Assembly: GCA_021845885.1 (NCBI GenBank)
Contig: JAJZVB010000002.1
Coordinates: forward strand, 1-53,128
DNA: 53,128 nt
Origin: Pseudomonadota bacterium
GTDB taxonomy: Bacteria; Pseudomonadota; Gammaproteobacteria; Burkholderiales; JABEVD01
Direction of reading: 5' to 3'
Shown: one piece after another, positions 5,292-28,559 of the stretch
How positions within the stretch are numbered: position 1 is the first letter of the stretch
Layout of the letters: each line of letters starts with the position of its first letter
Notes under the pieces: generated by a model
What the model saw: only the letters and a program-made list of their open reading frames with translations
What the model was told of the DNA's origin: nothing
Database searches by the model: none
Program-made: the position numbers and the translations under genes

Positions 5292-6932
5292 TCAGGAAGA
5301 CTTGTATCGGTTGATGAGATGGTTGGTCGACGCATCGTGGGCAGCGGTTTCGTCTTGCATCGAGAGCTCGGGAAGGATTTTCGAGGCGAGCGCCTTGCCG
5401 AGTTCAACGCCCCACTGATCGAATGAATTGATCCGCCAAACGACGCCCTGGACGAATATCTTGTGTTCGTAGAGGGCAATGAGCGAACCCAGCGCGTGAG
5501 GCGTGAGTTTTTTCAAAAGGATGGAATTGGTGGGCCTGTTTCCCGGGAAAACCTTGTGCGGCAGCAGCTTTTCCAGGCGTTCCTCGTCCATGCCTTCGAG
5601 TTCGCCCCGGACTTCCTCGGGCGTCTTGCCCTTCATCAGCGCTTCCGTCTGGGCGAGGAAATTCGAGAGCAGGATGGCATGGTGCCGCCCGAGGGGATGA
5701 TGCGATTCGAGAGGCGCGATGAAGTCCGCGGGAATCAGGCACGTTCCCTGGTGGATGAGCTGGTAGAAGGCATGCTGCCCGTTCGTTCCGGGCTCTCCCC
5801 AAACCACAGGGCCGGTCATGTAATCGACGGGAAGGCCATCCCTGTCGACGCGCTTGCCGTTGCTTTCCATGTCCCCCTGCTGCAGATAGGCGGGGAACCT
5901 GTGCAGGGATTCGTCGTAGGGGAGGATGGCATGGGTTTGCGCACCATGGAAATTGATATACCAGATTCCCAGCAGGCCCATCACCACGGGCAGATTCTCC
6001 TCCAGCGGGGCCTGCCTGAAATGACGGTCCATTTCGGTCGCCCCCAGGAGGAGTTCCTCGAAATTGTCCATGCCCACCGCGACCGCAATGGAAAGCCCGA
6101 TGGCCGACCAGAGGGAATAGCGCCCCCCCACCCAGTCCCAGAATTCGAACATGTTTTCGACATCGATGCCGAATTTTCCGACCTCGACGGCATTAGTCGA
6201 GAGCGCGACGAAATGCTTCGAGACATGACGGGGATCCTTCGCTTTTTCCAGGAACCAGGCTTTTGCGGAATTCGCGTTGACGATCGTTTCCTGGGTGGTG
6301 AAGGTTTTCGATGCGACGATGAAAAGTGTGGTTTCCGGATCCAGCCTTTCCAGCTTCGTGGCGATATCCGTGCCGTCCACATTCGAGACGAAATGTACGG
6401 AAAGCCCTTCCTTCCAGTAAGGCCTGAGCGCTTCGGTGACCATCTGCGGGCCCAGGTGGGATCCGCCTATGCCGATGTTGACGACATCCTTGATGGATTT
6501 TCCGCTGTAGCCCAGCCATGTCCCGCTTCTCACGGCTTCCGAGAAAATTCCCATTTTTTTCAGGACCCGCCTGATTTTCGGCAGAACGTCCTCCCCGTCG
6601 CAAAGGACGGGCTGGCTTTCAGGGTTTACCGCAGCCCTCAATGCAGTGTGGAGAACGGCCCTGTTCTCGGTGAAGTTGATTTTCTCCCCCTTGAACATGC
6701 GCTCGCGCCATCCTTCGAGATCGGACCATCTCGCGAGCCCGAAGAGGAGCTCCATGGTCTCGATCGTGACGAGATTCTTCGAATAGTCAAGGAAAATATC
6801 GCCGGACTCCAGGGAAAACCGTTCGAAGCGCAAGGGATCGGCATCGAAAAGCGCCCTCATCGACAGGCCCGAAAGCTTCTCCCTGTGCGAGAGAAGCGCT
6901 TTCCATGCTTCGCATTGTGTAAGTATCGACAT
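5292..6932 (-). CDS. pgi: Glucose-6-phosphate isomerase
   Basis: [40 protein letters not shown] and [10 protein letters not shown] motifs. Confidence 0.98.
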
Positions 6933-6935
6933 AGC

Positions 6936-9116
6936 TCAGTGTTCTAGAATGATGCAGGCAAGCGGGGGAATGGCCAGCGAAATCGACTGCTTTTCCCCCA
7001 TCCACGGGACCGGTTCAGATTCGACCCCCTTTCCGTTCCCCAAGTTCGTTCCGCCGTAATAGGTCGAATCGCTGTTGAAGATTTCGTTGTAACGGCCCCG
7101 AACCGGAACCCCTATCCGGTATCCTTTTCTGGGGACGGGCGTGAAATTGAGCACCACGACAAGGGAAGTGCCGTTCCGGGCGATGCGCCTGTAGCTCAGC
7201 ACGGACTGGTCCGCGTCGTGGCAGTCTATCCATGAAAAGCCGTTGCTGGAGAAGTCCAGTTCGTGCAGGGGGGGGCGGCTCAAATAAAGGCGGTTGAGGT
7301 CCTTCACGAGTTTTTGAACGCCCTGATGGGCGGGAAGTTCGAGCAGTTCCCAGTCGAGCCGGGATTTCACTTGCCATTCCTTCCCCTGTGCGAATTCGTT
7401 GCCCATGAAATTGAGCTTCCTGCCTGGATAGGTCATCTGGTAGGCATAGAGCAGCCTGAGGTTGGCGAAACGCTGCCAGGCATCTCCGGGCATCTTGTCG
7501 AGAAGCGATTTCTTGCCGTGCACGACCTCGTCGTGGGAGAAGGGCAGGACGAAGTTTTCCGTATAGCTGTAGATCTGGCCGAAAGTCAGCTTGTCGTGAT
7601 GGTAGCGCCTATGAACGGGGTCGTGCTTCATGTAGGCGAGGGTGTCGTTCATCCAGCCCATGTTCCATTTCATCGAAAAGCCGAGCCCGCCCAGATAAAC
7701 GGGGCGGGAAACCATGGGCCAGGAGGTCGATTCTTCGGCGATGGTGAGGGCGCCCTTGAATTCCTCGTGAACCATGATGTTGAGTTCCCTCAGGAAATCG
7801 ATGGCGTCGAGGTTTTCCCTTCCGCCGTATTTGTTGGGCAGCCATTCCCCCTCTTTTCTCGAATAGTCGAGATAAAGCATGGATGCGACCGCGTCGACCC
7901 TCAGGCCGTCTATGTGGCATTCGGAGAGCCAGAAATGCGCATTCGAAATCAGAAAGTTCCTGACCTCGTTTCGGCCGTAGTTGAAGATGTAGGTTCCCCA
8001 GTCCTGATGTTCGCCCTGCCTGGGATCCTCGTGCTCATAGAGCGCCGTTCCGTCGAAACGGGCGAGCGCAAAATCATCCCTGGGAAAATGTGCCGGGACC
8101 CAGTCGAGGATCACGCCTATTCCGGCCATGTGGCACGCCTCAACGAATGAGCGAAAGTCTTCCGGGGAGCCGTAGCGGTTCGTGATGCCGAAATACCCCG
8201 TTGTCTGGTAGCCCCAGGATTCGTCGAGCGGATGCTCGCTGACCGGCATGAGTTCGATATGCGTGTAGCCCATGTCCTTGACATAGGGAATGAGCGATGC
8301 GGCGAGCTCCCTGTAGTTCATGGGGGAGCCGTCCGGCCGGTGCCTCCATGATCCGGCATGAATCTCGTAAATGTTCAGGGGTTCATTCAGCCAGTCGCGG
8401 GTCCCGCGCTTTTCCATCCAGGCATCGTCTTGCCAGACATGGGCTCCAAGGCTGCAGATTCTGGAAGCAGTCCCCGGCCGCTCCTCGAAGGCGAAGCCGT
8501 AGGGATCGGTCTTGACCAGGATGGCGCCCTGCCTGCTCCTGATCTCGTACTTGTACAGGGCGCCCGCCTCGATGCCCGGAATGAAGATTTCCCATATGCC
8601 GTTGGAGGGATGCGCGCGCATGGGATGGATTCTCCCGTCCCATGCGTTGAAATCCCCCACCACGCTGACTCGCTCCGCATTGGGCGCCCATACCGCGAAG
8701 CGGGTGCCGGATATGCCTTCAAGCCTCATGGGGTGAGCCCCGAGCATGCGGTAGGCGAGGTGAAGGCGTCCTTCGCCGAAAAGGTGAAGGTCGAGTTCGC
8801 CTATCGAAGAGCTGAAGCTGTAGGGATCATGGGTTTCGGCAGCCCGGCCTTCCCGCACGATGCGAATCCTGCAGGGGAAAGGCGGGTGCCTTGTTCCGGA
8901 CCAGCTGAAAATGCCCGCCTTGCGCCTGAGCTTCTCCCATTCATTTCCGGAATGAAGCCACACCTCTTCGGCATGCGGCTGAAAGGTTCGGAAAAGCCAT
9001 TTCCCTTCGCTTTCGTGAAGTCCAAGATAGGAAAACGGGTCATGGTGTCTCGCTTCCAGGATGGCATCGGCTTCTTGAGTTGGCATGACGCATTTTTCCA
9101 GGGTTGTCAAACGCAT
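6936..9116 (-). CDS. glgB: 1,4-alpha-glucan branching enzyme (GH13)
   Basis: [40 protein letters not shown] and SHDEVVHGK motifs. Alternative start at 9086. Confidence 0.97.
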
Positions 9117-16097: not shown

Positions 16098-17069
16098 ATG
16101 GCGATCATCACTTTTGAAGGACAGGCCTACGAATGCAAGGAAAACGAGACCGTTCTCGATTGTCTGAATGCTCATGGTGTGCCGGTCCCCTCTTCATGCA
16201 AGGCGGGGGTTTGTCAGACCTGCCTGATGCGCGCAATGAAAGGCGAGGTGCCAGAAGAATCGCAGAAGGGGCTCAAATCCACGCTCGTCGAGCAGAATTA
16301 TTTCCTTGCCTGCTCATGCCAACCGGTTGAAGATATCGAGGTGAGCCTGCCCGAGACCGAGGTGGGAAAAATCCCTGCCACGGTGATCGGGATCGAGCCG
16401 CTCAACAGCGATATCGTCTGCGTGAGGCTCTATCCCGGAAGGGATTTCGAATACAGGGCGGGGCAGTACATCAATTTCTTCAAGGATGAGTCCGTTTCGA
16501 GAAGCTATTCGCTCGCCAGCGTGGCGGGACTCGACGACTGCATCAAGCTTCATGTGCGCAAGATCCCGCAAGGGCGGGTCAGCACGTGGATACACGAATC
16601 CCTTTTCCCTGGGGATACGGTGGAGATTTCCGAAGCAGCGGGGGATTGCTTCTATGTGCCCGGAAATCCGGAGCAGGGTCTGCTCCTGGTTGGCACGGGT
16701 TCGGGGCTCGCCCCGCTTTACGGCATCGTCAGGGATGCCCTCATGGCCGGGCACGCCGGGCCGATCAGGCTCTATCACGGCAGCCTGAATGTCGAAGGGC
16801 TTTACCTGATTTCGGAATTGAGGCAGCTTGCCCGGGAATACGACAACTTCAGCTATATTCCCTGCGTTTCTGGCGGGGAAGCGCCCGATGGGTTTGCTGC
16901 GGGAATCGTGCTCGATGTCGCATTGAAGGAAACGCCGAAACTTTCAGGATGGCGCGTCTATCTTTGCGGCAACCCGGATATGGTGAATGCCGCAAGGAAG
17001 AAGACCTTCCTTGCGGGTGCATCGATGAAGGATATTTACGCCGATCCTTTCGTTCCTTCGCGGCCTTAG
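16098..17069 (+). CDS. [2Fe-2S] ferredoxin - FAD/NAD(P)H oxidoreductase
   Basis: CKAGVCQTC...LAC plant-type Fe-S motif, RSYSLAS FAD motif, GTGSGLAP NAD motif and YLCGNPDMV. Confidence 0.92.
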   Translation: MAIITFEGQAYECKENETVLDCLNAHGVPVPSSCKAGVCQTCLMRAMKGEVPEESQKGLKSTLVEQNYFLACSCQPVEDIEVSLPETEVGKIPATVIGIEPLNSDIVCVRLYPGRDFEYRAGQYINFFKDESVSRSYSLASVAGLDDCIKLHVRKIPQGRVSTWIHESLFPGDTVEISEAAGDCFYVPGNPEQGLLLVGTGSGLAPLYGIVRDALMAGHAGPIRLYHGSLNVEGLYLISELRQLAREYDNFSYIPCVSGGEAPDGFAAGIVLDVALKETPKLSGWRVYLCGNPDMVNAARKKTFLAGASMKDIYADPFVPSRP

Positions 17070-17524
17070 GAAAGGAATCTCATCAGAAGGCGCCTGCTGT
17101 GCCTGTCGAGGCTGGAGACGCGCCTGATCAGGAAATTCACGCCGCTTTCGCCCGAGATGATCACCATCGATGGACCGATGCGGCGTATGTCATCCTCGCT
17201 TTTCAGCCTGAAAGCAGTGCTTCCGCGGTCCGTTTCGACGTGCCAGAGATTCGGCACGGATGCGCCATCGATGGCCTCTATCCTCGTAATTTCGGGAAGG
17301 AATTCGCGCTGATGCAATGACTCCTCGATGAGCTGGCGCTGCCTTTCCGGGAGTTTGCCTATTTCCGCAATCCAGGCGAGTTCCTTCCCTGCGGGGCTCA
17401 ACAGGGAGATCCCGCCTTCGGGGGAAGTGAGGGGGAAAGCCCTGACAGGCAGTGCGGCATGGCGACTTCCGTCCTTGGCGACATAAATCAGCTTTCCGAA
17501 AGCGTCCTTTTCAAGTTCGATCAT
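17066..17524 (-). CDS. DUF1854-like protein (family associated with cyanophycin loci)
   Basis: PVRAFPLTSP, FLPEITRI, WHVETDRG and LDRHSRRLL match my recollection of DUF1854. Start overlaps the ABC transporter stop. Confidence 0.75.
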   Translation of the reverse strand: MIELEKDAFGKLIYVAKDGSRHAALPVRAFPLTSPEGGISLLSPAGKELAWIAEIGKLPERQRQLIEESLHQREFLPEITRIEAIDGASVPNLWHVETDRGSTAFRLKSEDDIRRIGPSMVIISGESGVNFLIRRVSSLDRHSRRLLMRFLS

Positions 17525-19653
17525 GCCGCTTCCCCGTCCATCTGCCTTGCCTGGGCCTGGTAGAGCCTGTGATAAGCGCCTTCTTTTGCGATCAGGTCGT
17601 CGTGGCTGCCGATTTCGACAATTTCCCCCCTATCCATCACCACCAGCCGATCGGCGCGGCGCAAGGTCGAAAGTCTGTGCGCAATGGCGATGGTGGTGCG
17701 GCCCCTGATGAGATTCTCGAGCGCTTCCTGGATTTCCAGCTCGGTTTCGGTGTCGACCGATGAAGTCGCTTCGTCCAGGATCAGGATGCGCGGATCGATG
17801 AGCAGCGCGCGGGCGATGGAGATGCGCTGGCGTTCTCCGCCGGAGAGGGATTGGCCGCGCTCCCCGACCAGGGAATCGTATCCCAAGGGCAGGCGAAGGA
17901 TGAATTCATGGGCATGAGCGGCCCGGGCAGCGGCCACGATTTCCGCCTTCGAGGCGTCGGGCTTTCCATAGGCGATGTTTTCGGCGATCGTACCGAAGAA
18001 CAGGAAGGGCTCCTGGAGCACGAGCCCGATGTTGCGGCGGTATTGCGCAAGGGAAAGGGAGCGGATATCCAGTCCGTCGACCAGGATTTCGCCCTCAAGA
18101 GGGTCGTAGAACCGGCAGATCAGGTTGACGAGCGTGCTCTTTCCCGACCCGCTGTGCCCGACGAGCCCGATCATCTCTCCCGGGGAAATGGAAAGATTCA
18201 CGCCCCTCAATATGGGCCTCTGGCCATAGCGGAATGCGGCCTTCCTGATCTCTATGGCCCCTTCGATTCTGCCGATCGGCAAGGGATTCGACGGTTCCGG
18301 CACGCTGGAAGCATGGTCGAGTATGTCGAAGATGCGTTTCGCCCCTGCGGCCGCCTTCTGCGTGACGGATACGATGCGGCTCATCGAATCGAGGCGTGTG
18401 TAGAAACGGGTGATGTAGGCGAGGAAGGCGGTCAGCATGCCTACGGTGATCGTTTTCCTGGACACTTCCCATATGCCGAAGGCCCAGACCACGAGCAGGC
18501 CGATTTCGGTGAGTAGCGTCACGCTCGGCCCGAATAGCGACCATACCGTGTTCACCTTGTCGTTCACCTCGAGATTGTGGGCATTGGCATGCTTGAATCG
18601 GGCCACTTCCCTCGCTTCCTGGGCGAAAGCCTTGACCACCCTGATTCCCGGAATGGTGTCGGCAAGCACGTTGGTGATTTCGGACCAGACCCTGTCGGAC
18701 TGCTCGAAGCCGTGTTTGAGCCTGTCGCGGACGTAATGGATCATCCAGGCGATGAAGGGAAGCGGCAGGAGCGTCACCACGGCGAGCCATGGATTGATGG
18801 AAAGCAGGATGGCTGCAGTCATGGCGATCATCAAAAGATCGGTTGCGAAATCGAGGAGATGGAGCGACAGGAAGACGTTGATCCGGTCCGTCTCGGAGCC
18901 TATCCTCGCGATCAGGTCGCCTGTTCTTTTTCCGCCGAAATATTCCAGGGAAAGGCTCTGCAGGTGTCTGAAGGTTTCCACCCTCAAATCGGCGCCGATG
19001 CGCTCCGACACCCTGGCGAGCAAATAGGTCCTGGCCCAGCCCAGGATCCATGCGGCCAGGGCGGCCATGAAGAGGCCTGACAAATACAAGGCGACCCTAC
19101 TCTTGTCTATCGGAATGCCGTTCTGGAAGGGAATCAGCACCTTGTCCATCAGCGGCATGGTGAGATAGGGCGGAACCATGGCTGCGGCCGTGGAGGCGAG
19201 CGTGAGCAGGAAGCCGGTGAAAAGTTCCCTACGATACGGCTTTGCGAACCGCCTCAGGCGAAACAGCGTCCAGCTCGGAGGCTGGGCTTCCTCTTCTGAC
19301 CCCTCAATGTCGATACGCGCTTCTTCTTCAATGCCGCGGAAGCAATCGAGAAGGCGTTTCGCTGCGGCGTCGCGGTCCAGGGTGTAGCGCCATGCGGCGA
19401 GCAGTCTGTCGCTGCGCAATTCGATGCGCCCGACCCCGCCATGCTCTTCTTTGACGAGTTCCAGACCTGTCCTTCCCCAGTCCTGCCATTGCCCGGAAGG
19501 GTCGAGGCCGATCAGGCGCCTGTCGGTAAGGAAAAGGAAGCTCGAGGAAAATCTCAGCGCATCGTCCAGATTCGATTCGAGCGAGGCCATGAGCTTTTCT
19601 CCCGGTTCGAGCGGGGCCTCGATCAGTGCCTCTTTTGAAGGAATGTCCTGCAT
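17521..19653 (-). CDS. ABC exporter (fused TMD-NBD) with an N-terminal cytoplasmic extension; cyanophycin-locus-associated type
   Basis: Multiple TM helices, Walker A GHSGSGKS, signature LSGGERQR, Walker B ILILDEATS and AHRLST. Start is ATG 19653 or ATG 19698. Confidence 0.92.
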   Translation of the reverse strand: MQDIPSKEALIEAPLEPGEKLMASLESNLDDALRFSSSFLFLTDRRLIGLDPSGQWQDWGRTGLELVKEEHGGVGRIELRSDRLLAAWRYTLDRDAAAKRLLDCFRGIEEEARIDIEGSEEEAQPPSWTLFRLRRFAKPYRRELFTGFLLTLASTAAAMVPPYLTMPLMDKVLIPFQNGIPIDKSRVALYLSGLFMAALAAWILGWARTYLLARVSERIGADLRVETFRHLQSLSLEYFGGKRTGDLIARIGSETDRINVFLSLHLLDFATDLLMIAMTAAILLSINPWLAVVTLLPLPFIAWMIHYVRDRLKHGFEQSDRVWSEITNVLADTIPGIRVVKAFAQEAREVARFKHANAHNLEVNDKVNTVWSLFGPSVTLLTEIGLLVVWAFGIWEVSRKTITVGMLTAFLAYITRFYTRLDSMSRIVSVTQKAAAGAKRIFDILDHASSVPEPSNPLPIGRIEGAIEIRKAAFRYGQRPILRGVNLSISPGEMIGLVGHSGSGKSTLVNLICRFYDPLEGEILVDGLDIRSLSLAQYRRNIGLVLQEPFLFFGTIAENIAYGKPDASKAEIVAAARAAHAHEFILRLPLGYDSLVGERGQSLSGGERQRISIARALLIDPRILILDEATSSVDTETELEIQEALENLIRGRTTIAIAHRLSTLRRADRLVVMDRGEIVEIGSHDDLIAKEGAYHRLYQAQARQMDGEAA

Positions 19654-19689
19654 GCGCGCAGTATACCCCAAGCCGCGCAATAATCCCCC

Positions 19690-19851
19690 TGTCTCCATTT
19701 TGAGACAAATAATTATATTGAAAATCAGAATGTTATTTTTATTGTTCGGGGATCTGTCTCCCGCTGGCGACGTTCCGGACTGGAATTATTCCAGAAAGTC
19801 ATTTTTATTCTTTTTAAATCATTGAGTTGATTATGTGGCATGATATTTGCT
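19690..19851 (+). promoter_or_regulatory. Sigma-54 promoter with putative enhancer and IHF site upstream of cphA
   Basis: TGGCATGATATTTGCT at 19836-19851 (GG-N10-GC). Palindrome TGTCTC-N6-GAGACA at 19690-19707. IHF-like AATCATTGAGTTG at 19817-19829. Confidence 0.75.
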
Positions 19852-19882
19852 TTTATATGTGTTTCCAACACCGATCGGTCAT

Positions 19883-22015
19883 ATGCGCGACATCGAAATC
19901 CTCAGGATTCATCATCTCAAGGGGCCCAATATCTGGACCTACCGTCCCGTGCTTGAGGCCTGGGTCGATATCGGCGAACTGGAGGACTGCCCTTCCAATA
20001 CCATAGCAGGCTTTTATGAAAGGCTGGTCTCCTGGCTGCCCACGCTCGAGGAACATCGCTGCAGCTATGGGGTCAGGGGAGGATTTCTTCGCCGGGTCAG
20101 GGAAGGCACCTGGCCCGCCCATATCCTCGAGCATGTCACGCTGGAATTGCAAAGCCTCGCGGGTTTCCCGGGCGGCTTCGGCAAGGCGAGGGAAACCTCG
20201 AAGCGGGGCGTCTACAAGGTGGTGGTGCGCGCCCATCAGGAAGCGCTCACGCGGGCCTGCCTCCTTGCTGCAAGGGACCTCGTCATGGCTGCCATGGAGG
20301 ACAGGCCATTTGAGGTGGCTGCCGTGGTCAAAACATTGCGGCGCGTGGCCGATTCGTATTGCCTCGGGCCCAGCACCGCCTGCATCGTGGATGCGGCAGA
20401 CGACCGGGACATCCCGGCGATCCGCCTGAACGAAGGCAATCTGGTTCAGCTCGGCTATGGCGCCAGGAGCCGCAGGATCTGGACGGCGGAAAGCGATGCC
20501 ACCTCGGCCATCGCCGAAGGCATTTCAAGGGACAAGGATCTCACCAAGAGCTTGCTCGAATCATGCGGCGTTCCCGTTCCGGAAGGGAGACTGGCTGCTT
20601 CCTCGGAAGAGGCGTGGGAAGTGGCCGAAGCCATCGGCCTGCCCGTCGTCGTCAAGCCCACGGACGGCAATCACGGACGAGGCGTCTTCACCAACCTGCA
20701 GACAAGGGAAGAAATTGAAACCGCGTTTGAAGTGGCCGTCGGGGAAGGCAGCGGGGTCATCGTGGAGCGCTCCATTCCGGGCATCGAGCACCGCCTCCTC
20801 GTCGTGGGTGGAAAGCTGGTGGCTGCGGCAAAGGGGGAGGAAGTATTCGTGACCGGGGACGGGGTTTCCTCCGTTTCCGAACTGATCGAGCTCCAGGTCA
20901 ACAGCAGTTCCTTGCGCGGCGGCTCGGAAGACCATCCGCTCAATCCCGTCAGGCTGGACACGGCGGCCAGGATGGAGCTGAAGCGGCAGGGCTACGGCGC
21001 GGAATCGGTCATTCCTGAAGGCGTGCAGGTGCTCGTGCAGCGCAACGGAAGCGTCTGCTTCGACGTGACCGAAAGCGTTCATCCCGAAAATGCGGCCATT
21101 GCTGAACTCGCAGCCAGAGTCGTCGGGCTCGACATCGCGGGAATCGATCTGCTTGCGGAAGACATTTCGAGGCCCCTCAGGGAGCAGCATGGCGCGATCG
21201 TCGAAGTCAATGCGGGGCCCGGGCTCCTCATGCATCTGAAGCCCGCGATAGGCGCGCCCAGGCCGGTCGGGAAAGCCATCGTCGGCAGCCTTTTCGACAA
21301 GGGCGAATCGGGAAGGATTCCGATCGTCGGGATTACGGGAACCGGGGACAACAGTTCGACCGCCATGCAGATCGCCCGGCTTTTCCATCTCGAAGGGAAA
21401 AATGCAGGGCTCGCCTGCAGCGGAGGGCTTTATCTCGGAAAAAGGCGGATATCGAATCAGGCCGGATGGGCGGATTCCCGGAAGATCCTGATGAACAGGA
21501 ATGTCGAGGCCGCCGTATTCGAGAACGGCCCGCTTGTCCTGCTCGAAGAAGGACTCCCCTACGACCGCTGCCAGGTCGGCATCGTCACGGGCATCGCGCC
21601 GGGATCGAAAGTCGAGGCATTCGACATCCTGGACGAGGAGAAAATGGCCGGCGTGCTGCGCACCCAGGTCGACGTGGTGCTTGCGGAAGGGGCGGCCGTG
21701 CTCAATGCTGACGACGAGCGGGTCGTTGAAATGGCGAAATATTGTGACGGGGAGGTGATTTATTATGCCTCGGGACCGGGAAAGGTCAGTGCCCACATCG
21801 AGGCGGGGCACCGCGCCGTTTTTCTGCGCGGACGCTACCTGTTCCTCGCGCATGGGGGGGGCGAAACCAGGCTGATGCAGGGCGGCATCGGGCTGCTTCC
21901 TGCGGCTGCCGCAGCCGTCGCCCTGGGTTTCGATATTGAACTCATCAAAAATGGACTGGGAACATTCGACTGTGCCGATGCGGCCGAAATGAAAAGGAAT
22001 GCGGAATGCAATTAA
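19883..22015 (+). CDS. cphA: Cyanophycin synthetase paralogue CphA' (intact N-domain hydrolase motif; degenerate, truncated Mur-ligase domain)
   Basis: GPNIWTYRP, HRCSYG...HILEHVTLELQ, LGPST, LVQLGYG, VVKPTDGNHGRGV and EVNAGPGL. P-loop replaced by GTGDNSST; no C-terminal lid. Confidence 0.9.
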   Translation: MRDIEILRIHHLKGPNIWTYRPVLEAWVDIGELEDCPSNTIAGFYERLVSWLPTLEEHRCSYGVRGGFLRRVREGTWPAHILEHVTLELQSLAGFPGGFGKARETSKRGVYKVVVRAHQEALTRACLLAARDLVMAAMEDRPFEVAAVVKTLRRVADSYCLGPSTACIVDAADDRDIPAIRLNEGNLVQLGYGARSRRIWTAESDATSAIAEGISRDKDLTKSLLESCGVPVPEGRLAASSEEAWEVAEAIGLPVVVKPTDGNHGRGVFTNLQTREEIETAFEVAVGEGSGVIVERSIPGIEHRLLVVGGKLVAAAKGEEVFVTGDGVSSVSELIELQVNSSSLRGGSEDHPLNPVRLDTAARMELKRQGYGAESVIPEGVQVLVQRNGSVCFDVTESVHPENAAIAELAARVVGLDIAGIDLLAEDISRPLREQHGAIVEVNAGPGLLMHLKPAIGAPRPVGKAIVGSLFDKGESGRIPIVGITGTGDNSSTAMQIARLFHLEGKNAGLACSGGLYLGKRRISNQAGWADSRKILMNRNVEAAVFENGPLVLLEEGLPYDRCQVGIVTGIAPGSKVEAFDILDEEKMAGVLRTQVDVVLAEGAAVLNADDERVVEMAKYCDGEVIYYASGPGKVSAHIEAGHRAVFLRGRYLFLAHGGGETRLMQGGIGLLPAAAAAVALGFDIELIKNGLGTFDCADAAEMKRNAECN

Positions 22016-24564
22016 AGCGTATCAGGGCCCTGAGGGGCCCCAATCTTTGGACGAGACATACCGCGCTGGAAGCCTTGGTTTCTTGTCATGAAAAGCCCGA
22101 TGCGGGTTTCAATGTCAGGTTCGGCGCCGTTTTCCCCGAAATGGGGCAACCCGGGAGCTTCGCCCATGCATTGACGCATGCAGCGCTCGAGCTCCAGGTT
22201 CTGGCGGGATGTCAGGTGGCCTTCAGCTGCACGATGGCCATGCCCGAACCGGGTACTCATCTTTCCGTGGTTGAATATGGCGAGGAGGAAGTCGGCAGGC
22301 TGGCTTTCGAGCTCGCCGAGGCATTGTGCAGGTCGGCCCTGAATAATGAGGCTTTCGATCTTCAGGAGGCCCTGGCGAGGATCAGGGATCTCGATGAGGA
22401 TTCGAGGATCGGCCCCAGCACGGGTTCCATAGTCCAGGCGGCGATCGACCGGGAAATCCCCTGGCGCAGGCTGACGCGAGGCTCCCTCGTCCAGTTCGGA
22501 TGGGGAAGCCGCCAGAGGCGCATCCAGGCGGCCGAAACAGACCGCTGCGGGGCGATTGCGGAATCCATCGCCCAGGACAAGGATCTCGCCAAGATGCTGC
22601 TCGATGCGGCAGGCGTTCCGGTGCCTCAGGGCCGTCCCGTCGAGGACGCCGAGGATGCCTGGCTTGCGGCATGCGAAATAGGCGCCCCGGTCGTGGTCAA
22701 GCCCAGAAACGGCAACCAGGGCAAGGGCATCACCGCCAACATTTCGCAAAGGGATGAAGTGTTTTCCGCCTATGATGCCGCTTGCGGGTATGACGACGAA
22801 GTGCTGGTGGAGCGCTATCTTCCGGGATGCGATTATCGCCTTCTGGTGGTGGGAAATGGTATGGTCGCCGCGGCAAGGCGCGATCCACCCCATGTGATCG
22901 GCGACGGAAAAAGAGCCATCAGGGAACTCGTGGAGGCGGTCAACAATGATCCGATGCGAGGGGAAGGGCATGCCACTTCGCTCACCAAAATAAGGCTCGA
23001 CGAAATTGCGCTCGCCACGCTCGCCCGCCAGGGGCTGGAAGCCGATTCGATTCCGGAAGAAGGCAGGAAGGTCGTGCTCAGGAACAATGCCAACCTTTCA
23101 ACGGGCGGCACGGCGACCGACGTCACGCTTGACGTGCATCCCGAAGTCGCAGCCCGCGCGGTCGAGGCGGCGAAGGCGGTCGGGCTCAAGGTCTGCGGCG
23201 TGGACATCGTCTGCGGGAATGTGGGACTGCCGCTCGAAGAGCAGGGCGGCGGCGTCGTCGAAGTGAATGCGGCGCCCGGGTTGCGCATGCATCTCGATCC
23301 TTCCTTCGGGGAAAAGAGGCCGGTGGGAGAAGCCATCATGTCCGAATTGTTCCCTGAGGGAGACGGGCGCATCCCGCTCGTCGCCGTGACGGGAACCAAC
23401 GGTAAAACCACTACGGTCAGGCTCTGCGCCCATCTTCTCGGCAAAAGCGGATTGCGCGTCGGCATGACCAATTCCGACGGCGTCTATATCGGGGGTCAAC
23501 GCATCGACACCGGGGATTGCAGCGGGCCGAAAAGCGCGCGCAACGTGCTGCTGCATCCCGACGTCGATGCCGCCGTTCTGGAAACCGCGAGGGGGGGGCT
23601 GTTGCGGGAAGGGCTCGCCTTCGACCGCTGCGACGTGGCCATCGTCACCAATATCGGCATGGGAGACCATCTGGGTCTGGCCCATATCCATACCGTCGAG
23701 GATCTCGCGGTGGTCAAGCGGGTTATCGTTGAAAATGTTTCGCCCGAAGGCTATGCCGTGCTCAATGCCGACGATCCCCTGGTCGCAGCCATGGCGGAAT
23801 CCTGTCCGGGCTCGGTCCTGTTCTTCTCCAGGAATCCTCATCATCCCCTCATTGCGGCAAGCCGCGTGAGGAGGGAGCGCGTGGTGTTCGCCTCATCCGA
23901 CGGCATTCATGCCGTACAGGGTAAATTCGAGCATCACTTTGCCTGGTCCGAAATCCCGCTCACGAGGGGAGGGGCCGTCCCGTTCCAGATCGAAAACGCG
24001 ATGGCGGCGATTGCGGCGGGATGGGCATTGGGTCTTTCCTGGGAAATCATACAAAACGGACTTTCCTCCTTCAGGAGCGATGCCGCGACAGCTCCCGGGC
24101 GGTTCAATGTGTTCGACTTCCGGGATGCCACCGTGATTGCCGATTACGGACACAATCCCGATGCGATTCTCGCGCTCGTCAAGGCCGTAGAAGCCTTCCC
24201 CGCGAGCCGCAGGACGGTCGTCATCAGCGGGGCGGGGGACAGGCGCGACGAGGATATCGTGAGCCAGACCAGGATGCTCGGTGCGGCCTTCGACGAAGTC
24301 GTGCTCTACCAGGACCAGTGCCAGCGCGGAAGGGCGGACGGGGAAGTGCTGAAGCTCTTGCGGGAAGGATTGGAAAATGCGCCGAGAACGAGGAAGATAG
24401 CCGAGATCAGGGGCGAATTCGCCGCCATCGATCGCGCGCTCGACCGATTGAATCCCGGGGAGCTTTGCCTGATCCTCGTCGATCAGGTGGACGAGGCGCT
24501 TTCCCATATCGGCCTGCGCGTCGAGGAAGCCCTGCGTTTTCCATTGCAGGCGATGGCGTCATGA
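22006..24564 (+). CDS. cphA: Cyanophycin synthetase CphA
   Basis: LRGPNLW, IGPSTGSIV, VVKPRNGNQGKG, ANLSTGG, EVNAAPGLRMH, VTGTNGKTTT, ETARGG, DHLG, PGRFN and DYGHNP. Confidence 0.96.
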   Translation: MQLKRIRALRGPNLWTRHTALEALVSCHEKPDAGFNVRFGAVFPEMGQPGSFAHALTHAALELQVLAGCQVAFSCTMAMPEPGTHLSVVEYGEEEVGRLAFELAEALCRSALNNEAFDLQEALARIRDLDEDSRIGPSTGSIVQAAIDREIPWRRLTRGSLVQFGWGSRQRRIQAAETDRCGAIAESIAQDKDLAKMLLDAAGVPVPQGRPVEDAEDAWLAACEIGAPVVVKPRNGNQGKGITANISQRDEVFSAYDAACGYDDEVLVERYLPGCDYRLLVVGNGMVAAARRDPPHVIGDGKRAIRELVEAVNNDPMRGEGHATSLTKIRLDEIALATLARQGLEADSIPEEGRKVVLRNNANLSTGGTATDVTLDVHPEVAARAVEAAKAVGLKVCGVDIVCGNVGLPLEEQGGGVVEVNAAPGLRMHLDPSFGEKRPVGEAIMSELFPEGDGRIPLVAVTGTNGKTTTVRLCAHLLGKSGLRVGMTNSDGVYIGGQRIDTGDCSGPKSARNVLLHPDVDAAVLETARGGLLREGLAFDRCDVAIVTNIGMGDHLGLAHIHTVEDLAVVKRVIVENVSPEGYAVLNADDPLVAAMAESCPGSVLFFSRNPHHPLIAASRVRRERVVFASSDGIHAVQGKFEHHFAWSEIPLTRGGAVPFQIENAMAAIAAGWALGLSWEIIQNGLSSFRSDAATAPGRFNVFDFRDATVIADYGHNPDAILALVKAVEAFPASRRTVVISGAGDRRDEDIVSQTRMLGAAFDEVVLYQDQCQRGRADGEVLKLLREGLENAPRTRKIAEIRGEFAAIDRALDRLNPGELCLILVDQVDEALSHIGLRVEEALRFPLQAMAS

Positions 24565-24741
24565 GCGTTTCGCAAGATTTTCCCGCCTGCGCTTTTCGGC
24601 CAGATCGAGGACGGCTTTCCTTTCCCCGGCATCCAATTCGTTCCATGCAACGATCTCGGAAAGCGATCTGAAGCAGCCCAGGCAGATGTCGTTCTCGTCC
24701 AGGCAGCAATTCCTGACGCAGGGGGAGGCGACGTCAGCCAT
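24559..24741 (-). CDS. DUF1289 (YdhL-like) small Cys-rich putative Fe-S protein
   Basis: SPCVRNCCLD...CLGCFRSLSEI.AW. Start overlaps the nadB end. Confidence 0.85.
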   Translation of the reverse strand: MADVASPCVRNCCLDENDICLGCFRSLSEIVAWNELDAGERKAVLDLAEKRRRENLAKRS

Positions 24742-26305
24742 GTTTCAGTATGGTGTCATAGGCATCGCTCAACTTTTCAGGATAGTCGCGGCTGTAATGC
24801 AGGCCGCGGCTTTCAGGCCGCAGCATCGCGCTCTTCACGATGAGCTGCGCCGTGAGCACGAGATTCCTGAGCTCCAGGAGATCCTGGCTGATCCTGAAGT
24901 TGGAATAATATTCCTCGATTTCTTCGGTGAGCAGCTTGATCCTGTTTTGCGCGCGCTCAAGGCGCTTCCTGGTGCGCACGATGCCGACATAATTCCACAT
25001 GAAGCGGCGCAATTCCGACCAGTTGTGATGGATCACAATTTCCTCGTCCGCGTCGGTCACGCGGCTTTCGTCCCAGAGGGGAAGCTCGATGCTTTCTCCT
25101 TTTGGTTTTTCCAGGATGTCTCTCGCGGCAGCCTTCGAGAAGACCAGGCATTCCAGGAGCGAGTTGCTGGCGAGACGGTTTGCGCCGTGCAGCCCCGTGC
25201 AGGCCGTCTCGCCTATGGCATAGAGATCCTGGACGTCGGTCCTGCCGGAGAGGTCGGTCATGACTCCGCCGCAAAGATAATGGGCTGCCGGAACGACGGG
25301 AATCGGCTCCTTGGAGATATTGATCCCGAGTTCGAGGCATCTCGAATAAATGGTGGGGAAATGGGTCCTGAGGAATTCCGGGCTTTTCTGCGTCATGTCG
25401 AGATAGACGCATTCGATGCCGCGCTTCTTCATTTCGAAGTCGATGGCGCGGGCGACGATGTCTCGCGGGGCGAGTTCGGCTCGCTCGTCGTGCAGGGGCA
25501 TGAAACGCGTTCCGTCCGGAAGCCTCAGGATCCCGCCTTCCCCCCTCAGCGCCTCCGAAATGAGAAAGGATTTTGCTTTGGGATGATAGAGGCAGGTCGG
25601 ATGGAACTGGATGAATTCCATGTCGGCCACCCTGCAGCCTGCCCGCCATGCGATCGCGACCCCGTCTCCCGTGGAAGTGTCCGGATTCGTGGTGTAAAGA
25701 TAAACTTTTCCCGCCCCGCCGGTTGCGAGCACGGTGTTGTCGGCCGCTATGCTTTTCACCTTGTTTTCCATGCAATCGAGCGCATAGAGACCCAGGCACC
25801 GGTTGTCCTTGAGGCCCACCTTGGATGCAGTGATGAGGTCGATCGCCATGTGGTGCTCGAGCACGATGATGTTCGGGTTTTTCTCCACCTTTTCGATGAG
25901 CGTTTGCTGTACGGCCGCCCCCGTTGCGTCCGCGGCATGGATGATGCGCCTGAAACTGTGCCCGCCTTCCCGGGTGAGATGGAAATGACCGGCTTCTTCG
26001 GGGTCGGCGGTGAAAGGGACGTGCAGGTCGATCAGCCATTGTATGGCCTCCCGCCCTTCCTCCACGACATGCCTCACCACTGCCTCGTTGCAAAGCCCTG
26101 CGCCCGCCACCAGCGTATCGCGGACATGCGATTCGATCGAATCGGCTTCGGAAAGGACCGCTGCGATGCCGCCCTGGGCCATGTAGCTTGCGCCCTCGGC
26201 CAGAGATTTTTTCGTGATCAGGCCGACTTTCTGCCTTTCGCCGAGATGCAGGGCCAGGGAAAGCCCGGCAAGGCCGCTGCCGACGATGAGCGTGTCAAAG
26301 CGCAT
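24734..26305 (-). CDS. nadB: L-aspartate oxidase
   Basis: GSGLAG, AQGGIAAV, REGGHS, QFHPT, SEALRGEG, ELAPRDIVARAI, HGANRLASNSLLE and ESRGLH. Confidence 0.98.
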   Translation of the reverse strand: MRFDTLIVGSGLAGLSLALHLGERQKVGLITKKSLAEGASYMAQGGIAAVLSEADSIESHVRDTLVAGAGLCNEAVVRHVVEEGREAIQWLIDLHVPFTADPEEAGHFHLTREGGHSFRRIIHAADATGAAVQQTLIEKVEKNPNIIVLEHHMAIDLITASKVGLKDNRCLGLYALDCMENKVKSIAADNTVLATGGAGKVYLYTTNPDTSTGDGVAIAWRAGCRVADMEFIQFHPTCLYHPKAKSFLISEALRGEGGILRLPDGTRFMPLHDERAELAPRDIVARAIDFEMKKRGIECVYLDMTQKSPEFLRTHFPTIYSRCLELGINISKEPIPVVPAAHYLCGGVMTDLSGRTDVQDLYAIGETACTGLHGANRLASNSLLECLVFSKAAARDILEKPKGESIELPLWDESRVTDADEEIVIHHNWSELRRFMWNYVGIVRTRKRLERAQNRIKLLTEEIEEYYSNFRISQDLLELRNLVLTAQLIVKSAMLRPESRGLHYSRDYPEKLSDAYDTILKHG

Positions 26306-26382
26306 TCAAATCCTTTGTTATGTTTCTGTCACAAATATATCATGATTGCCGCCGGATTTTTCGAAATAGGCAAGCCTTCCGT

Positions 26383-26410
26383 GAACTAATAACCATGACG
26401 GATTGTCTCT
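26383..26410 (+). promoter_or_regulatory. Putative sigma-E autoregulatory promoter
   Basis: GAACTA-N16-GTCTCT upstream of rpoE, resembling the ECF sigma-E GAACTT...TCT consensus. Confidence 0.55.
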
Positions 26411-26519: not shown

Positions 26520-27119
26520 ATGGGGGACAGGAGCATAGACCAGCAGTTGGTGGAGCAGGCGCAGCGCGGAGACAAGCGCGCGTTCGGCTTGCTGGTCTCG
26601 AAGTATCAGCGCAAGCTGGCCAGGCTGCTGTCCCGTTTCATCCGGGACCCGGCTGAAGTGGAGGATGTGACGCAGGAGGCCTTCATCAAGGCTTACCGCG
26701 CGCTTCCCTCCTTCAGGGGGGACAGCGCTTTTTATACCTGGCTTTATCGGATAGGCATCAATACGGCCAAGAATTATCTGGTTGCCCAGGGGCGCCGCGC
26801 GCCGACGACGACGAGTCTGGACAACGAGGAGGCGGAAAGCTCGGAAGAAGGAGAAGGATTGTGGGAAGTCACTACCCCGGAAAACGAACTGATGAGCAAG
26901 CAGGTCGCCAAGACGGTGAACGACACTTTGCAGACGCTTCCTGAAGAGCTCAGGACCGCGATCACGCTGCGCGAAATAGAAGGTTTGAGTTACGAGGAAA
27001 TTGCGAACATCATGGATTGCCCGATCGGGACAGTACGCTCCAGGATTTTTCGCGCCAGGGAAGTGATAGCAGAGAAGTTGAGGCCGATGTTGGAACCCAG
27101 GAAAAACAAGAGGTGGTGA
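26520..27119 (+). CDS. rpoE: ECF sigma factor RpoE
   Basis: DVTQEAFIKAYRAL, AFYTWLYRIGINTAKNYL and GLSYEEIA...CPIGTVRSRIFRARE. Divergent from nadB. Confidence 0.98.
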   Translation: MGDRSIDQQLVEQAQRGDKRAFGLLVSKYQRKLARLLSRFIRDPAEVEDVTQEAFIKAYRALPSFRGDSAFYTWLYRIGINTAKNYLVAQGRRAPTTTSLDNEEAESSEEGEGLWEVTTPENELMSKQVAKTVNDTLQTLPEELRTAITLREIEGLSYEEIANIMDCPIGTVRSRIFRAREVIAEKLRPMLEPRKNKRW

Positions 27120-27120
27120 A

Positions 27121-27594
27121 ATGAGAGAGCAAATTTCGTTGCTGATGGATGGCGAGCTGGACGGCGATGCTTCCGCGCAGCTCGTATCCGGGATGAAGGA
27201 ACAGGATGACTGGCATTTGTATCACCTGATCGGCGATGCCATGCGGGATCCGGAAGGATTCAGGGCCGATCTCGATCTGGATTGCAGCCGGGCCATCAGC
27301 CTTGAGCCCACGGTGCTGGCGCCTCAAAAATCGAAGCTGCACCATGCGAAACTGTATGCCCTGTCCGCAGCGGCATCTTTTGCGGCTGTTCTTGCGGTGG
27401 GATGGGTCGTCTTGCAGAGCCCGCAGGATTCGCCGGTTCCGAAGCAGGTCGCGCAGGTCGTGCGCCTCAATGTCATCAAGTCCAAGCTGGACGACTATCT
27501 GGCTGCGCATCAGGAATTCTCTCCCGAATCGGGGGGGATTATGACTTCCAACATCAGGACGGTTTCAGACACCTATCAGGAAAACGGCAGATGA
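27121..27594 (+). CDS. rseA: Anti-sigma-E factor RseA/MucA
   Basis: EQISLLMDGEL, WHLYHLIGDAMR, one TM segment and LDDYLAAHQEF. Confidence 0.92.
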   Translation: MREQISLLMDGELDGDASAQLVSGMKEQDDWHLYHLIGDAMRDPEGFRADLDLDCSRAISLEPTVLAPQKSKLHHAKLYALSAAASFAAVLAVGWVVLQSPQDSPVPKQVAQVVRLNVIKSKLDDYLAAHQEFSPESGGIMTSNIRTVSDTYQENGR

Positions 27595-28559
27595 GACTTG
27601 TCGTTTTCCTGCTGTTGGTTGCAACCCGGGCCGCATTCGCGGCGACGCCCCTCCAGCCTCAGGATTCCATCGATTTACTGAAAAAGATTTCCGCCGCAGC
27701 CTACCAGGTGACCTATCAGGGGACCTTCATTTTCCAGCGCGACGGGCGGATCGAAAGCACGCGAATTTACCATCTGGTCGACCAGAATGGCGAGCATGAA
27801 AAGCTTGTCAGGCTGGACGGGCCTGCAAGGGAAATCATCTGCGACGACGGGCAGATGACATTCTACTATCCCGACCAGAAATCCATGACGATGGAGCGCC
27901 ATGCCGTGGCGAGAAGGGGATTCCCGGCCCTGCTGCCGGATCAGCTTCAGACCCTCTCGGACAATTACCTGCTCGAGGACGACGGTCGCGAACGCCTGGC
28001 TGGCTACGACAGCAGGATCCTGCTGCTCACTCCCAAGGACGGTTTCCGCTACGGGCACAAGCTCTGGATCGATTCCGCCACAAACCTGCTTCTCAAGGCG
28101 GCGATGATCAGCGGCGAGAACGATATCATCGAGCAGTTCGCTTTCACTTACGTGAAGATAGGCGGCAATATCGACAGAAACCTGCTCAAGCCTTCCCTGC
28201 CTGTCAAGGCGCCCCGTTTGCAAAGCGACCCCCGCCAGGACAGTTTTCAGAGCGGATGGGGCGTGGAGAATCTGCCTCCCGGATTCAGGAAAATCGCCGA
28301 AATGAAGCGCATGTTCAGGGGCAAGAACTATCCTGTCACGCATCTTGTCTATTCGGACGGCATCGTGGCCGTCTCGGTCTTCATCGAACCTTTGACGCCC
28401 GGGACGAGGCCGATGCAGGGCGTGGCCAGCCGGGGTGCGGTGAATCTTTATGTCCATCCCGCGGACCAGTACCAGATCACCGTGGTCGGCGAAACGCCGG
28501 AGATCACGGTCAGGCAGATCGGCGATTCTGTCGTTCACAATGGAAAGAGCCATGATTGA
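27591..28559 (+). CDS. rseB: RseB/MucB periplasmic regulator
   Basis: Signal peptide, YQGTFIFQ, LDGPAREII and HLVYSDGIVAVSVFIE. Confidence 0.93.
   Translation: MRLVVFLLLVATRAAFAATPLQPQDSIDLLKKISAAAYQVTYQGTFIFQRDGRIESTRIYHLVDQNGEHEKLVRLDGPAREIICDDGQMTFYYPDQKSMTMERHAVARRGFPALLPDQLQTLSDNYLLEDDGRERLAGYDSRILLLTPKDGFRYGHKLWIDSATNLLLKAAMISGENDIIEQFAFTYVKIGGNIDRNLLKPSLPVKAPRLQSDPRQDSFQSGWGVENLPPGFRKIAEMKRMFRGKNYPVTHLVYSDGIVAVSVFIEPLTPGTRPMQGVASRGAVNLYVHPADQYQITVVGETPEITVRQIGDSVVHNGKSHD

Follow-up and report, generated by a model that had tools for sequence, protein, structure and literature searches.

Division of the three cyanophycin synthetase sites between two tandem genes, cphA' and cphA, in a Burkholderiales genome

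The window analyzed here, a 53,128-nucleotide stretch of contig JAJZVB010000002.1 from a Burkholderiales genome, contains two cyanophycin synthetase genes in tandem, cphA' (copy 1) and cphA (copy 2), which raises the question of what each of the two proteins contributes. To our knowledge, such pairs have been recognized for about twenty years, with no role assigned to CphA'. A first-pass annotation of the window had proposed that the two paralogues underwent subfunctionalisation with reciprocal loss of active sites, and that they form a hetero-oligomer in which CphA' generates primers and CphA performs the ligations. We find that the three sites of the enzyme are indeed divided over the two genes: the N-domain peptidase motif is complete in CphA', the residues of the two ligase sites, G and M, are complete in CphA, and the same division recurs in most of the related loci. 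As a whole, the earlier interpretation is partly supported.

Both proteins share the N-G-M architecture of CphA1 and match the solved CphA1 enzymes with E values of 1.5e-136 (copy 1) and 1.9e-191 (copy 2); they are 39% identical to each other over 720 residues. Both also pass the NCBIfam cyanophycin synthetase model NF010623 (cut-off 877), with 968.6 bits for copy 1 and 1179.3 bits for copy 2, the match of copy 1 covering only positions 1-723 of the 871 in the model. The equivalog model TIGR02068 (cut-off 850) is passed by copy 2 (950.5 bits) and failed by copy 1 (675 bits). In Pfam, copy 1 matched the CphA N domain strongly (119.6 bits) as well as ATP-grasp, and it had no Mur-ligase domain at E <= 0.001; copy 2 matched Mur_ligase_M, Mur_ligase_C and ATP-grasp, with a weak and partial N domain (32.6 bits). 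The open reading frame (ORF) of copy 1 opens at a TTG codon (19847..22015, plus strand), and we place the start at the ATG at 19883, where the orthologues begin. The host genome is 2.07 Mb in size and 96.3% complete, and no further CphA above the cut-off was found elsewhere in it.

The solved enzymes provide a residue-level map for the comparison. The inverzincin-like peptidase site in the N domain of SuCphA1 consists of C59, H79, E82 and H83, supported by H57, F67, R70 and E87, and the corresponding Cx19HxxEH motif occurs in 83% of CphA1 at 70% non-redundancy (PMC9262961). The G domain holds ATP through K220 and K261 and stabilises the acyl-phosphate through H267 and R309, and incoming aspartate is bound by R323, R458 and N394, the last located in the large loop, 389-399 (PMC9427784). 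Published inactivating mutations are H267A for the G site and D585A/H586A for the M site.

Translation and alignment confirmed all motifs and positions that had been listed for copy 1. The Cx19HxxEH motif consists of C60 and H80-I-L-E83-H84 (nt 20060-20134), and all eight residues of the site are present: H58, C60, F68, R71, H80, E83, H84 and E88, the counterparts of H57, C59, F67, R70, H79, E82, H83 and E87 in SuCphA1. The motif is not a chance occurrence, since it lies at the homologous position of the solved enzyme and is conserved among the orthologues described below. The ATP-grasp domain, here called G', retains KPTDGNHGRG and EVNAGPG and, in alignment to the solved enzymes, K220, K261, H267, R309 and the E/N pair. 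R323 is replaced by Gly and R458 by Leu, and QRNGSVCFDVT stands in the place of NLSTGG, which leaves the large loop five residues shorter and without its Ser. AAKGE in place of AARRD had been noted as one of the losses, and the substitution is present; however, the Arg missing from it is R323, a ligand of the substrate Asp, whereas the catalytic R309 is kept within HRLLVV. Thus, AAKGE marks the loss of an Asp ligand rather than of the catalytic Arg. The M remnant has GTGDNSST at the P-loop (residues 486-493, nt 21338-21361) and Ser-Lys at the place of D585-H586, and the protein stops before the PGRFN/DYGHNP lid.

Judged from these residues, CphA' would be unable to add either Asp or Arg, and it holds the sole complete Cx19HxxEH site of the pair. 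Its G' domain does not look simply dead, since only the Asp-binding elements (R323, R458 and five loop residues) are gone; binding of ATP and of the polymer's C-terminal carboxylate still looks feasible. Within the G domain, the claim of reciprocal active-site loss stands for the Asp pocket but not for the ATP and acyl-phosphate residues. In a 2013 study, Adames and colleagues are said to have described CphA' as lacking much of a 'J-loop'. In the main texts searched, we found neither a published description of the reciprocal split nor the term 'J-loop' in connection with cyanophycin synthetase, and the words 'cyanophycin' and 'HxxEH' occurred together only in PMC9262961.

With its 710 residues and its truncated, inactive M domain, copy 1 resembles CphA2, and the CphA2 structures 8FXH and 7TA5 were matched with E values of 6.8e-59 and 2.4e-56. 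That copy 1 is a CphA2-type polymeriser of beta-Asp-Arg dipeptides is nevertheless very improbable. Its match to CphA1 is far better, and CphA2 is the opposite of copy 1 in two respects, having an unshortened large loop and no N-site motif (for the latter, PMC9262961). CphA2 activity needs N393 and S395 of the large loop (PMC10273328), whereas copy 1 and all 80 of its orthologues lack the loop Ser and five loop residues. Nor was a cyanophycinase that could supply the dipeptides found in the genome.

The motifs and positions listed for copy 2 were likewise confirmed in full. At the place of HxxEH it has HALTH (residues 54-58, nt 22165-22179), so that the Glu of the N site is gone. All of K220, K261, R309, R323, N394, S396, E450/N452 and R458 are present in the G site, and NLSTGG is found at residues 363-368 (nt 23092-23109). 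Position 267 is Gln; this replacement was considered as a mark of an inactive G domain and rejected, since many three-site representatives carry Gln. In the M domain, GTNGKTT (residues 463-469, nt 23392-23412), DHLG (554-557), PGRFN (697-701) and DYGHNP (713-718) are intact, and the P-loop, the Asp585-His586 pair and the lid residues Arg731 and His748 are all in place. The features of the locus are collected in Table 1.

Table 1. Positions of the cphA' and cphA genes, their domains and the adjoining genes in the window
Feature	Position	Strand	Remarks
DUF1854 gene (cyanophycin metabolism-associated)	17066..17524	-	Pfam PF08909, 142 bits; NCBIfam NF052234, 186.7 bits (cut-off 150)
ABC exporter, fused permease and ATPase	17521..19698	-	Divergent from cphA'; Pfam ABC_membrane and ABC_tran
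Intergenic region, ABC gene/cphA'	19699..19882	.	Divergent; promoters presumed from gene arrangement
cphA' (copy 1)	19883..22015	+	710 aa; N domain, G' domain and truncated M remnant
N-domain metallopeptidase site, predicted	20054..20146	+	Alignment to SuCphA1 7LG5
G' ATP-grasp domain	20366..21322	+	ATP/acyl-phosphate residues kept; Asp-binding elements lost
Degenerate M remnant	21323..22012	+	P-loop GTGDNSST, no Asp-His pair, lid missing
cphA'/cphA overlap	22006..22015	+	10 nt; copy 2 ATG precedes copy 1 stop; AGGA about 10 nt upstream
cphA (copy 2)	22006..24564	+	852 aa; G and M ligase sites intact
N domain without active site	22006..22410	+	Cys-bearing segment deleted; HALTH for HxxEH
G domain	22411..23376	+	K, R309, R323, NLSTGG loop, E/N and R458 present
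M domain	23377..24561	+	GTNGKTT, DHLG, PGRFN, DYGHNP

The likeliest model, in our view, although we hold it tentatively, is that of a two-protein synthetase in which CphA' is the chain cutter or primer maker. The two genes would then encode two parts of one cyanophycin-type synthetase system. CphA would do both ligations, its G domain adding Asp and its M domain adding Arg, and since it lacks the peptidase site it should need primers when alone. CphA' would cut nascent chains into primers, or set the chain length, for CphA, most likely within a hetero-oligomer joined via the usual Gcore-Gcore dimer interface.

Compared to the three-site CphA1 enzymes (SuCphA1 7LG5, 7LGJ, 7LGQ and 7TXU; TeCphA1 7WAC), copy 1 matches the catalytic residues of the N site and copy 2 those of the G and M sites; the differences are that no chain holds all three sites here and that copy 2 has Gln for His267. 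A closer parallel is an engineered one, the N-G+M+/N+G-M- heterodimers of SuCphA1, which work without primer (Sharon et al. 2022, PMC9262961) and whose sites are shared out between two chains as they are here. Unlike the engineered enzyme, which was made by point mutations in one gene, the pair described here is natural and old, resides in two diverged genes, and has a 'dead' G domain that keeps the ATP and acyl-phosphate residues. The primer-dependent TmCphA1 (7LGN) resembles copy 2 in having active G and M domains and no Cx19HxxEH residues, but no CphA' partner has been described for this single-gene enzyme, whereas copy 2 always has an adjacent one. We found no mention of paired genes or of Betaproteobacteria in the main text of PMC9262961.

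When genome contigs were scanned with copy 1, 80 loci were identified, from which 80 copy-1-like and 67 copy-2-like ORFs were aligned. Nearly all of the loci are from Betaproteobacteria in the older sense, including many metagenome-assembled genomes (MAGs), and the genera represented include Herbaspirillum, Limnohabitans, Bordetella, Achromobacter, Azospira, Nitrosomonas and Sulfuriferula. The gene cphA is located downstream of cphA' in 65 of the 66 loci with at least 1 kb of downstream sequence, the exception being L087 from a Planctomycetales MAG. The five core residues of the N site (H57, C59, H79, E82 and H83) were complete in 73 of the 80 CphA' proteins, while the Cys segment was deleted in all 67 CphA proteins, with the second His remaining in two. 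Alignment of many pairs, as the annotation had suggested, showed the reciprocal pattern to be general.

The two G domains differed just as consistently. In CphA', each of K220, K261, H267 and R309 was retained in 79 of 80 proteins and E450/N452 in 73 of 74 covering rows, as compared to R323, which was Gly in 78 of 80, the large loop, which was five residues shorter in 80 of 80, and R458, which was Leu in 72 of 74 covering rows. In CphA, K220 was present in 66 of 67 proteins, and K261 and R309 in 65 of 67 each; position 267 was Gln in 66, and E450/N452, R323, the large loop, R458, the P-loop Lys, the Asp-His pair and the lid were intact wherever the row covered them. The decay of the M domain in CphA' is gradual and lineage-dependent. 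The P-loop Lys was retained in 30 of 74 covering rows, the Asp585-His586 pair in four of 74 (L012, L013, L015 and L059) and the lid in just two (L013 and L015), and a full M domain occurs in some CphA'; in this respect, too, the proposed reciprocal loss is not uniform.

A metagenome scan, using an alignment of N-site-less CphA'-type proteins as the query, yielded 80 loci, which were classed by their sites. A complete cphA' followed by a complete cphA was found in 50 of these; 42 pairs combined N+G'M- with N-G+M+, and the cphA' of another eight pairs had a full M domain. The remaining loci comprised 12 single three-site genes, three single genes without the N site and 15 partial or odd cases. 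The N site was complete in 60 of the 62 metagenome G' ORFs, the other two being cut at the N terminus. The scan was aimed at N-site-less CphA'-type loci, but the CphA' pairs and singles that came back all bore the N site.

Ten of the 12 single three-site genes adjoin an ATP-binding cassette (ABC) gene and/or a DUF1854 gene, the same genes that adjoin the pair in the window, and six of these ten have at least 3.2 kb of downstream sequence without a second CphA. Thus, one three-site gene occupies the place held here by two genes with complementary sites, which is what subfunctionalisation predicts. The proposal of subfunctionalisation is supported by this context and by the generality of the split. 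Single three-site CphA1 proteins of about 1051 aa with a C-terminal extension were observed beside the ABC and DUF1854 genes in L129, L149 and L162.

Among 301 genomes sampled from the order of the window, 102 had a CphA match, and 91 of these had two or more (two matches in 86 genomes, three in 5 and one in 11). Across the class, 11 of 300 genomes drawn had a match, two of them with a pair. In five single-match loci from the order of the window (L209-L212 and L214), the gene encodes a canonical three-site CphA1 of about 840-920 aa with no ABC or DUF1854 gene beside it. It is adjoined downstream, on the same strand, by an ORF of 576-720 aa that has only Mur-ligase-type motifs (P-loop Lys, Asp-His and lid Arg/His).

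The ratios of nonsynonymous to synonymous substitution rates (dN/dS) are rough Nei-Gojobori estimates, based on 364 and 296 usable pairs of 700 sampled, with many pairs near saturation. For CphA' they were 0.161 (N), 0.185 (G') and 0.327 (M'), and for CphA 0.171 (N), 0.151 (G), 0.185 (Mcore) and 0.148 (M lid). These values indicate that all domains of CphA' are under purifying selection, that G' is as constrained as the active domains, and that the M remnant is more relaxed yet not free. In the same 27 genomes, the mean column identity was 56% for the CphA' alignment and 75% for the CphA alignment.

Association of the two chains was addressed by predicting a complex of the G domains only (CphA 130-457 and CphA' 155-480), using 27-row alignments, three runs and three controls. 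The heterodimer reached an interface score (ipSAE) of 0.69 in each of the three runs, as compared to 0.00 for the best control; the runs agreed in at least 97% of contacts, with a partner predicted local distance difference test (pLDDT) score of at least 85. Of 80 solved complexes, 58 reach the mark used, as do 2 of 110 mismatched pairs; these counts apply only roughly here because our own alignments were used. The predicted interface pairs the strand of CphA residues 177-187 with that of CphA' residues 203-212, which corresponds to the known Gcore-Gcore dimer contact. The proposed hetero-oligomer is consistent with this prediction; however, since CphA1 homodimers have been solved, the pass shows likeness rather than a mutual preference of the two chains, and may merely echo those structures. 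Residues that CphA' and CphA share and canonical enzymes lack were enriched at the predicted interface, where 5 of the top 25 columns lie (22 interface columns among 328; p = 0.018). Co-evolution of the interface was nevertheless dropped as evidence for a heteromer, since the AETD..AIAE motif is also found in three-site singles beside ABC/DUF1854 genes, and the enrichment is thus a trait of the lineage.

The same division of labour might also operate with no complex, as separate homo-oligomers with CphA' priming in trans. Such an arrangement is feasible in vitro, where TmCphA1 was made primer-independent by G/M-dead SuCphA1 or by the isolated N domain supplied in trans (PMC9262961), and CphA'-type genes are unlinked to cphA in the Planctomycete genomes discussed below. 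We consider it improbable here, given that the tandem order is retained in nearly all loci, that the predicted G-G heterodimer passes, with the reservation just made, and that the engineered enzyme cut somewhat better in cis than between protomers and performed better as a tetramer than as a dimer (PMC9262961).

For a wider view of the family, copy 1 was searched against 1.84 billion representatives, which returned 150 proteins, 134 of them of at least 600 aa. Together with copy 1, copy 2 and 38 ORFs of the related loci, these 134 made up an alignment of 174 rows: 47 three-site proteins, 23 ligase-competent proteins without the N site (CphA type), 62 CphA'-type proteins and 42 others. The CphA'-type proteins are set apart from the 70 ligase-competent enzymes by R323, S396, G398/G399, R458 and a His at copy-2 position 322, and have gained His303 (conserved in 92%) and Glu288 (82%). 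In trees made with FastTree and IQ-TREE (quick mode), the ligase-competent enzymes and the CphA' type were split by a strongly supported branch; neither tree settles the root or the deep order, and long branches may mislead. The short forms that served as a putative CphA2 outgroup have CphA1 as their best solved matches. The 42 other rows include proteins with N and M domains and no G domain. CphA-like proteins of this build, in which the N-site motif and the M domain are intact, are P0040 (796 aa) and a protein encoded in L094 (4418-6907); in L094 the gene immediately precedes that of a CphA which has the G and M domains but no N site, another way to split the sites.

Several observations weigh against a two-protein synthetase with CphA' as the primer maker. 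Seven of the 80 CphA' proteins (L069-L074 and L086) lack H57, C59 and H79, yet these loci retain cphA', cphA and the ABC gene, and their CphA also lacks the N site. In the wider family, the N site is absent from 31 of the 62 CphA'-type proteins and present in 31, so that conservation of the Cx19HxxEH motif, which had been expected among CphA' orthologues, holds for the 73 loci above but not across the CphA' type. A Planctomycete order, reached via L087, has three N-site-less CphA'-type genes standing alone and far from cphA, in genomes where a full-length CphA is located elsewhere, which indicates that the G' signature, and not the N site, is the constant of the family. The almost invariant H267 and R309 of G' would be needless in a mere carrier of the N domain. 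Furthermore, cleavage at the N site of SuCphA1 is a slow process that takes hours to days (PMC9262961). When cphA and cphA' of Cupriavidus necator H16 were overexpressed, cyanophycin was undetected, according to citing texts including bioRxiv 10.1101/072470, which leaves room for a product other than classical cyanophycin. The measurements made here do not tell a heteromer from two homo-oligomers. Lastly, the 10-nt overlap of cphA' and cphA recurs in the nearest relative (L009), but the spacer is 1 to 146 nt in the loci other than this genome and L009, so that translational coupling is not general.

The Planctomycete solo genes are located at 9106-10977 of L203, 7200-9140 of L205 and 6842-8890 of L208, with no CphA, ABC or DUF1854 gene within 7-9 kb, and their neighbours are unrelated (DUF1570, cytochrome c peroxidase, ApbE, GT87 and an epimerase). 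In L207, a CphA'-type gene with the N motif HCDEH (6423-8576) was observed beside ABC and DUF1854 genes, with no cphA within 7 kb downstream; the other CphA of that genome, in L206, is broken across several frames. No close relative of the N-site-less CphA'-type genes was found in 401 genomes of the phylum of the window, the best match being 46% identical.

As CphA' persists without the N site, it must have a role beyond primer making. It may be that its core role is that of a partner subunit or of an enzyme with a changed substrate, primer making having been taken over in this lineage. The first of these possibilities, taken as the main function, makes CphA' a non-ligating structural or regulatory subunit (a pseudoenzyme) whose G' domain assembles or activates CphA or couples it to the ABC/DUF1854 exporter, with the N site dispensable. 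Survival of the gene without the N site, the retained nucleotide-binding residues of G' and the similar dN/dS of G' and the active G domain of CphA are consistent with such a role, as is the predicted G-G heterodimer, within the limit stated above. In addition, the G active site of CphA1 takes Glu215 from the partner protomer (PMC9427784), so that a partner G domain matters for catalysis. We nevertheless regard it as unlikely, because the N site is complete in the large majority of both genome and metagenome loci, because the dN/dS of the N domain indicates selection on the site where present, and because its strict loss from CphA fits a hand-over of function.

The neighbourhood of the pair bears on what the two-protein synthetase might make. 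The DUF1854 and ABC exporter genes on one strand and cphA' and cphA on the other form a conserved four-gene module. The ABC protein matched the NCBIfam model NF052233, 'cyanophycin metabolism-associated ABC transporter', with 1270.9 bits (cut-off 880). An ABC gene is present in 64 of the 67 related loci with more than 2.5 kb of upstream sequence (the exceptions being L066, L067 and L087), and a DUF1854 gene at 63 of the 80 loci. In L064, L131, L141 and L166, cphA' is preceded by the ABC and DUF1854 genes on its own strand, in a non-divergent arrangement. The annotation had named CphA' as a possible replacement of CphB, and no match to cyanophycinase (TIGR02069), IadA (TIGR01975) or Asparaginase_2 (IaaA) was found in the 96.3%-complete genome.

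In these respects the window is a member of the betaproteobacterial cphA/cphA' pairs described from C. necator H16, Acidovorax 3H11, Cupriavidus basilensis 4G11, Accumulibacter and Sideroxydans, which it resembles in the tandem arrangement, the lack of cyanophycinase, the adjoining ABC transporter, the shorter paralogue upstream and the shortened ATP-grasp loop. In Acidovorax 3H11 and C. basilensis 4G11, all four genes of the module (DUF1854, ABC, cphA and cphA') are cofit, and Price et al. propose export of an amino-acid polymer (bioRxiv 10.1101/072470). Accumulibacter, other sludge taxa and Sideroxydans have neighbouring cphA copies, the ABC gene and no cphB (PMC10687191, PMC5178258), and both copies are evenly expressed in Accumulibacter MAGs (PMC10687191). 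Within their accessible portions, these texts do not describe the N-site-bearing copy or the lost G residues. In a 2023 survey, cyanophycinase was found in just 2.8% of 903 betaproteobacterial CphA1 genomes, which was described as unanticipated (PMC10206079).

These data are relevant to the possibility that G' is an active ATP-grasp domain with a changed second substrate, which would join the polymer carboxylate to a cap, a chain or an export acceptor to give an exported or modified polyamide. The substitutions are selective. They affect R323, S396, G398, R458 and a His at position 322 of copy 2, all of which contact the incoming Asp and show no variation in 70 of 70 ligase-competent enzymes; K261, H267, R309 and E450 stay, and the conserved His303 and Glu288 are found only in the CphA' type. 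The exporter-type ABC protein of the module, the polymer export proposed by Price et al., the reported failure of the C. necator enzymes to form cyanophycin and the scarcity of degrading enzymes, in this genome and among the Betaproteobacteria surveyed, point in the same direction. On the other hand, the module includes no conserved candidate acceptor or extra biosynthetic gene, and the large loop that closes the active site is shortened in all 80 orthologues, which makes a changed substrate a rather doubtful main explanation.

A more specific proposal is that CphA' is an 'anchor-and-cut' machine. The G' domain with ATP would grip or phosphorylate the C-terminal carboxylate of the polymer without being able to extend it, and the metallopeptidase of the same chain would cut at a fixed distance from it; the resulting oligomers would prime CphA or feed the ABC/DUF1854 exporter. 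CphA' would in that case be the missing cyanophycin-processing enzyme of Betaproteobacteria, and the polyamide would be exported and not only stored in granules. Taken jointly, these claims are unlikely to hold. With regard to the two-protein synthetase, sequence and comparison establish how the sites are divided, how widely this holds and which genes surround the pair, whereas we infer the peptidase activity of CphA', its physical association with CphA and the action of G'.

The genes beyond the module were also inspected. The gene nadB for L-aspartate oxidase (922 bits; window 24734-26305, minus strand) is convergent to cphA, which places an aspartate-consuming enzyme opposite the synthetase; this neighbour is shared with the nearest relative L009 only (1 of 80 loci). 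The plus-strand ORF of 567 aa that follows cphA (24686-26389) has no family match and is a shadow of nadB. Further downstream (26520-28559, plus strand) are genes for an rpoE-type extracytoplasmic function (ECF) sigma factor, an RseA-like anti-sigma factor and RseB/MucB. On the other side, a ferredoxin-NAD(P) reductase-type protein (Fer2, FAD_binding_6 and NAD_binding_1) is encoded at 16098-17069 (plus strand), adjoining the DUF1854 gene.

While the pairs themselves were already known, we found no earlier account, in the literature searched, of the natural division of the three cyanophycin synthetase sites over two genes. One chain carries the residues of the two ligase sites, and the other those of a peptidase site together with an ATP site minus its aspartate pocket. 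The pair is a natural counterpart of the engineered split enzyme, and it shows clearly how paralogues can share out the sites of a multi-site enzyme. For cyanophycin production, it suggests that betaproteobacterial synthetases are best expressed as pairs, perhaps together with the exporter genes. Moreover, the site map gives a concrete, testable form to two puzzles, the role of CphA' and the missing cyanophycinase.

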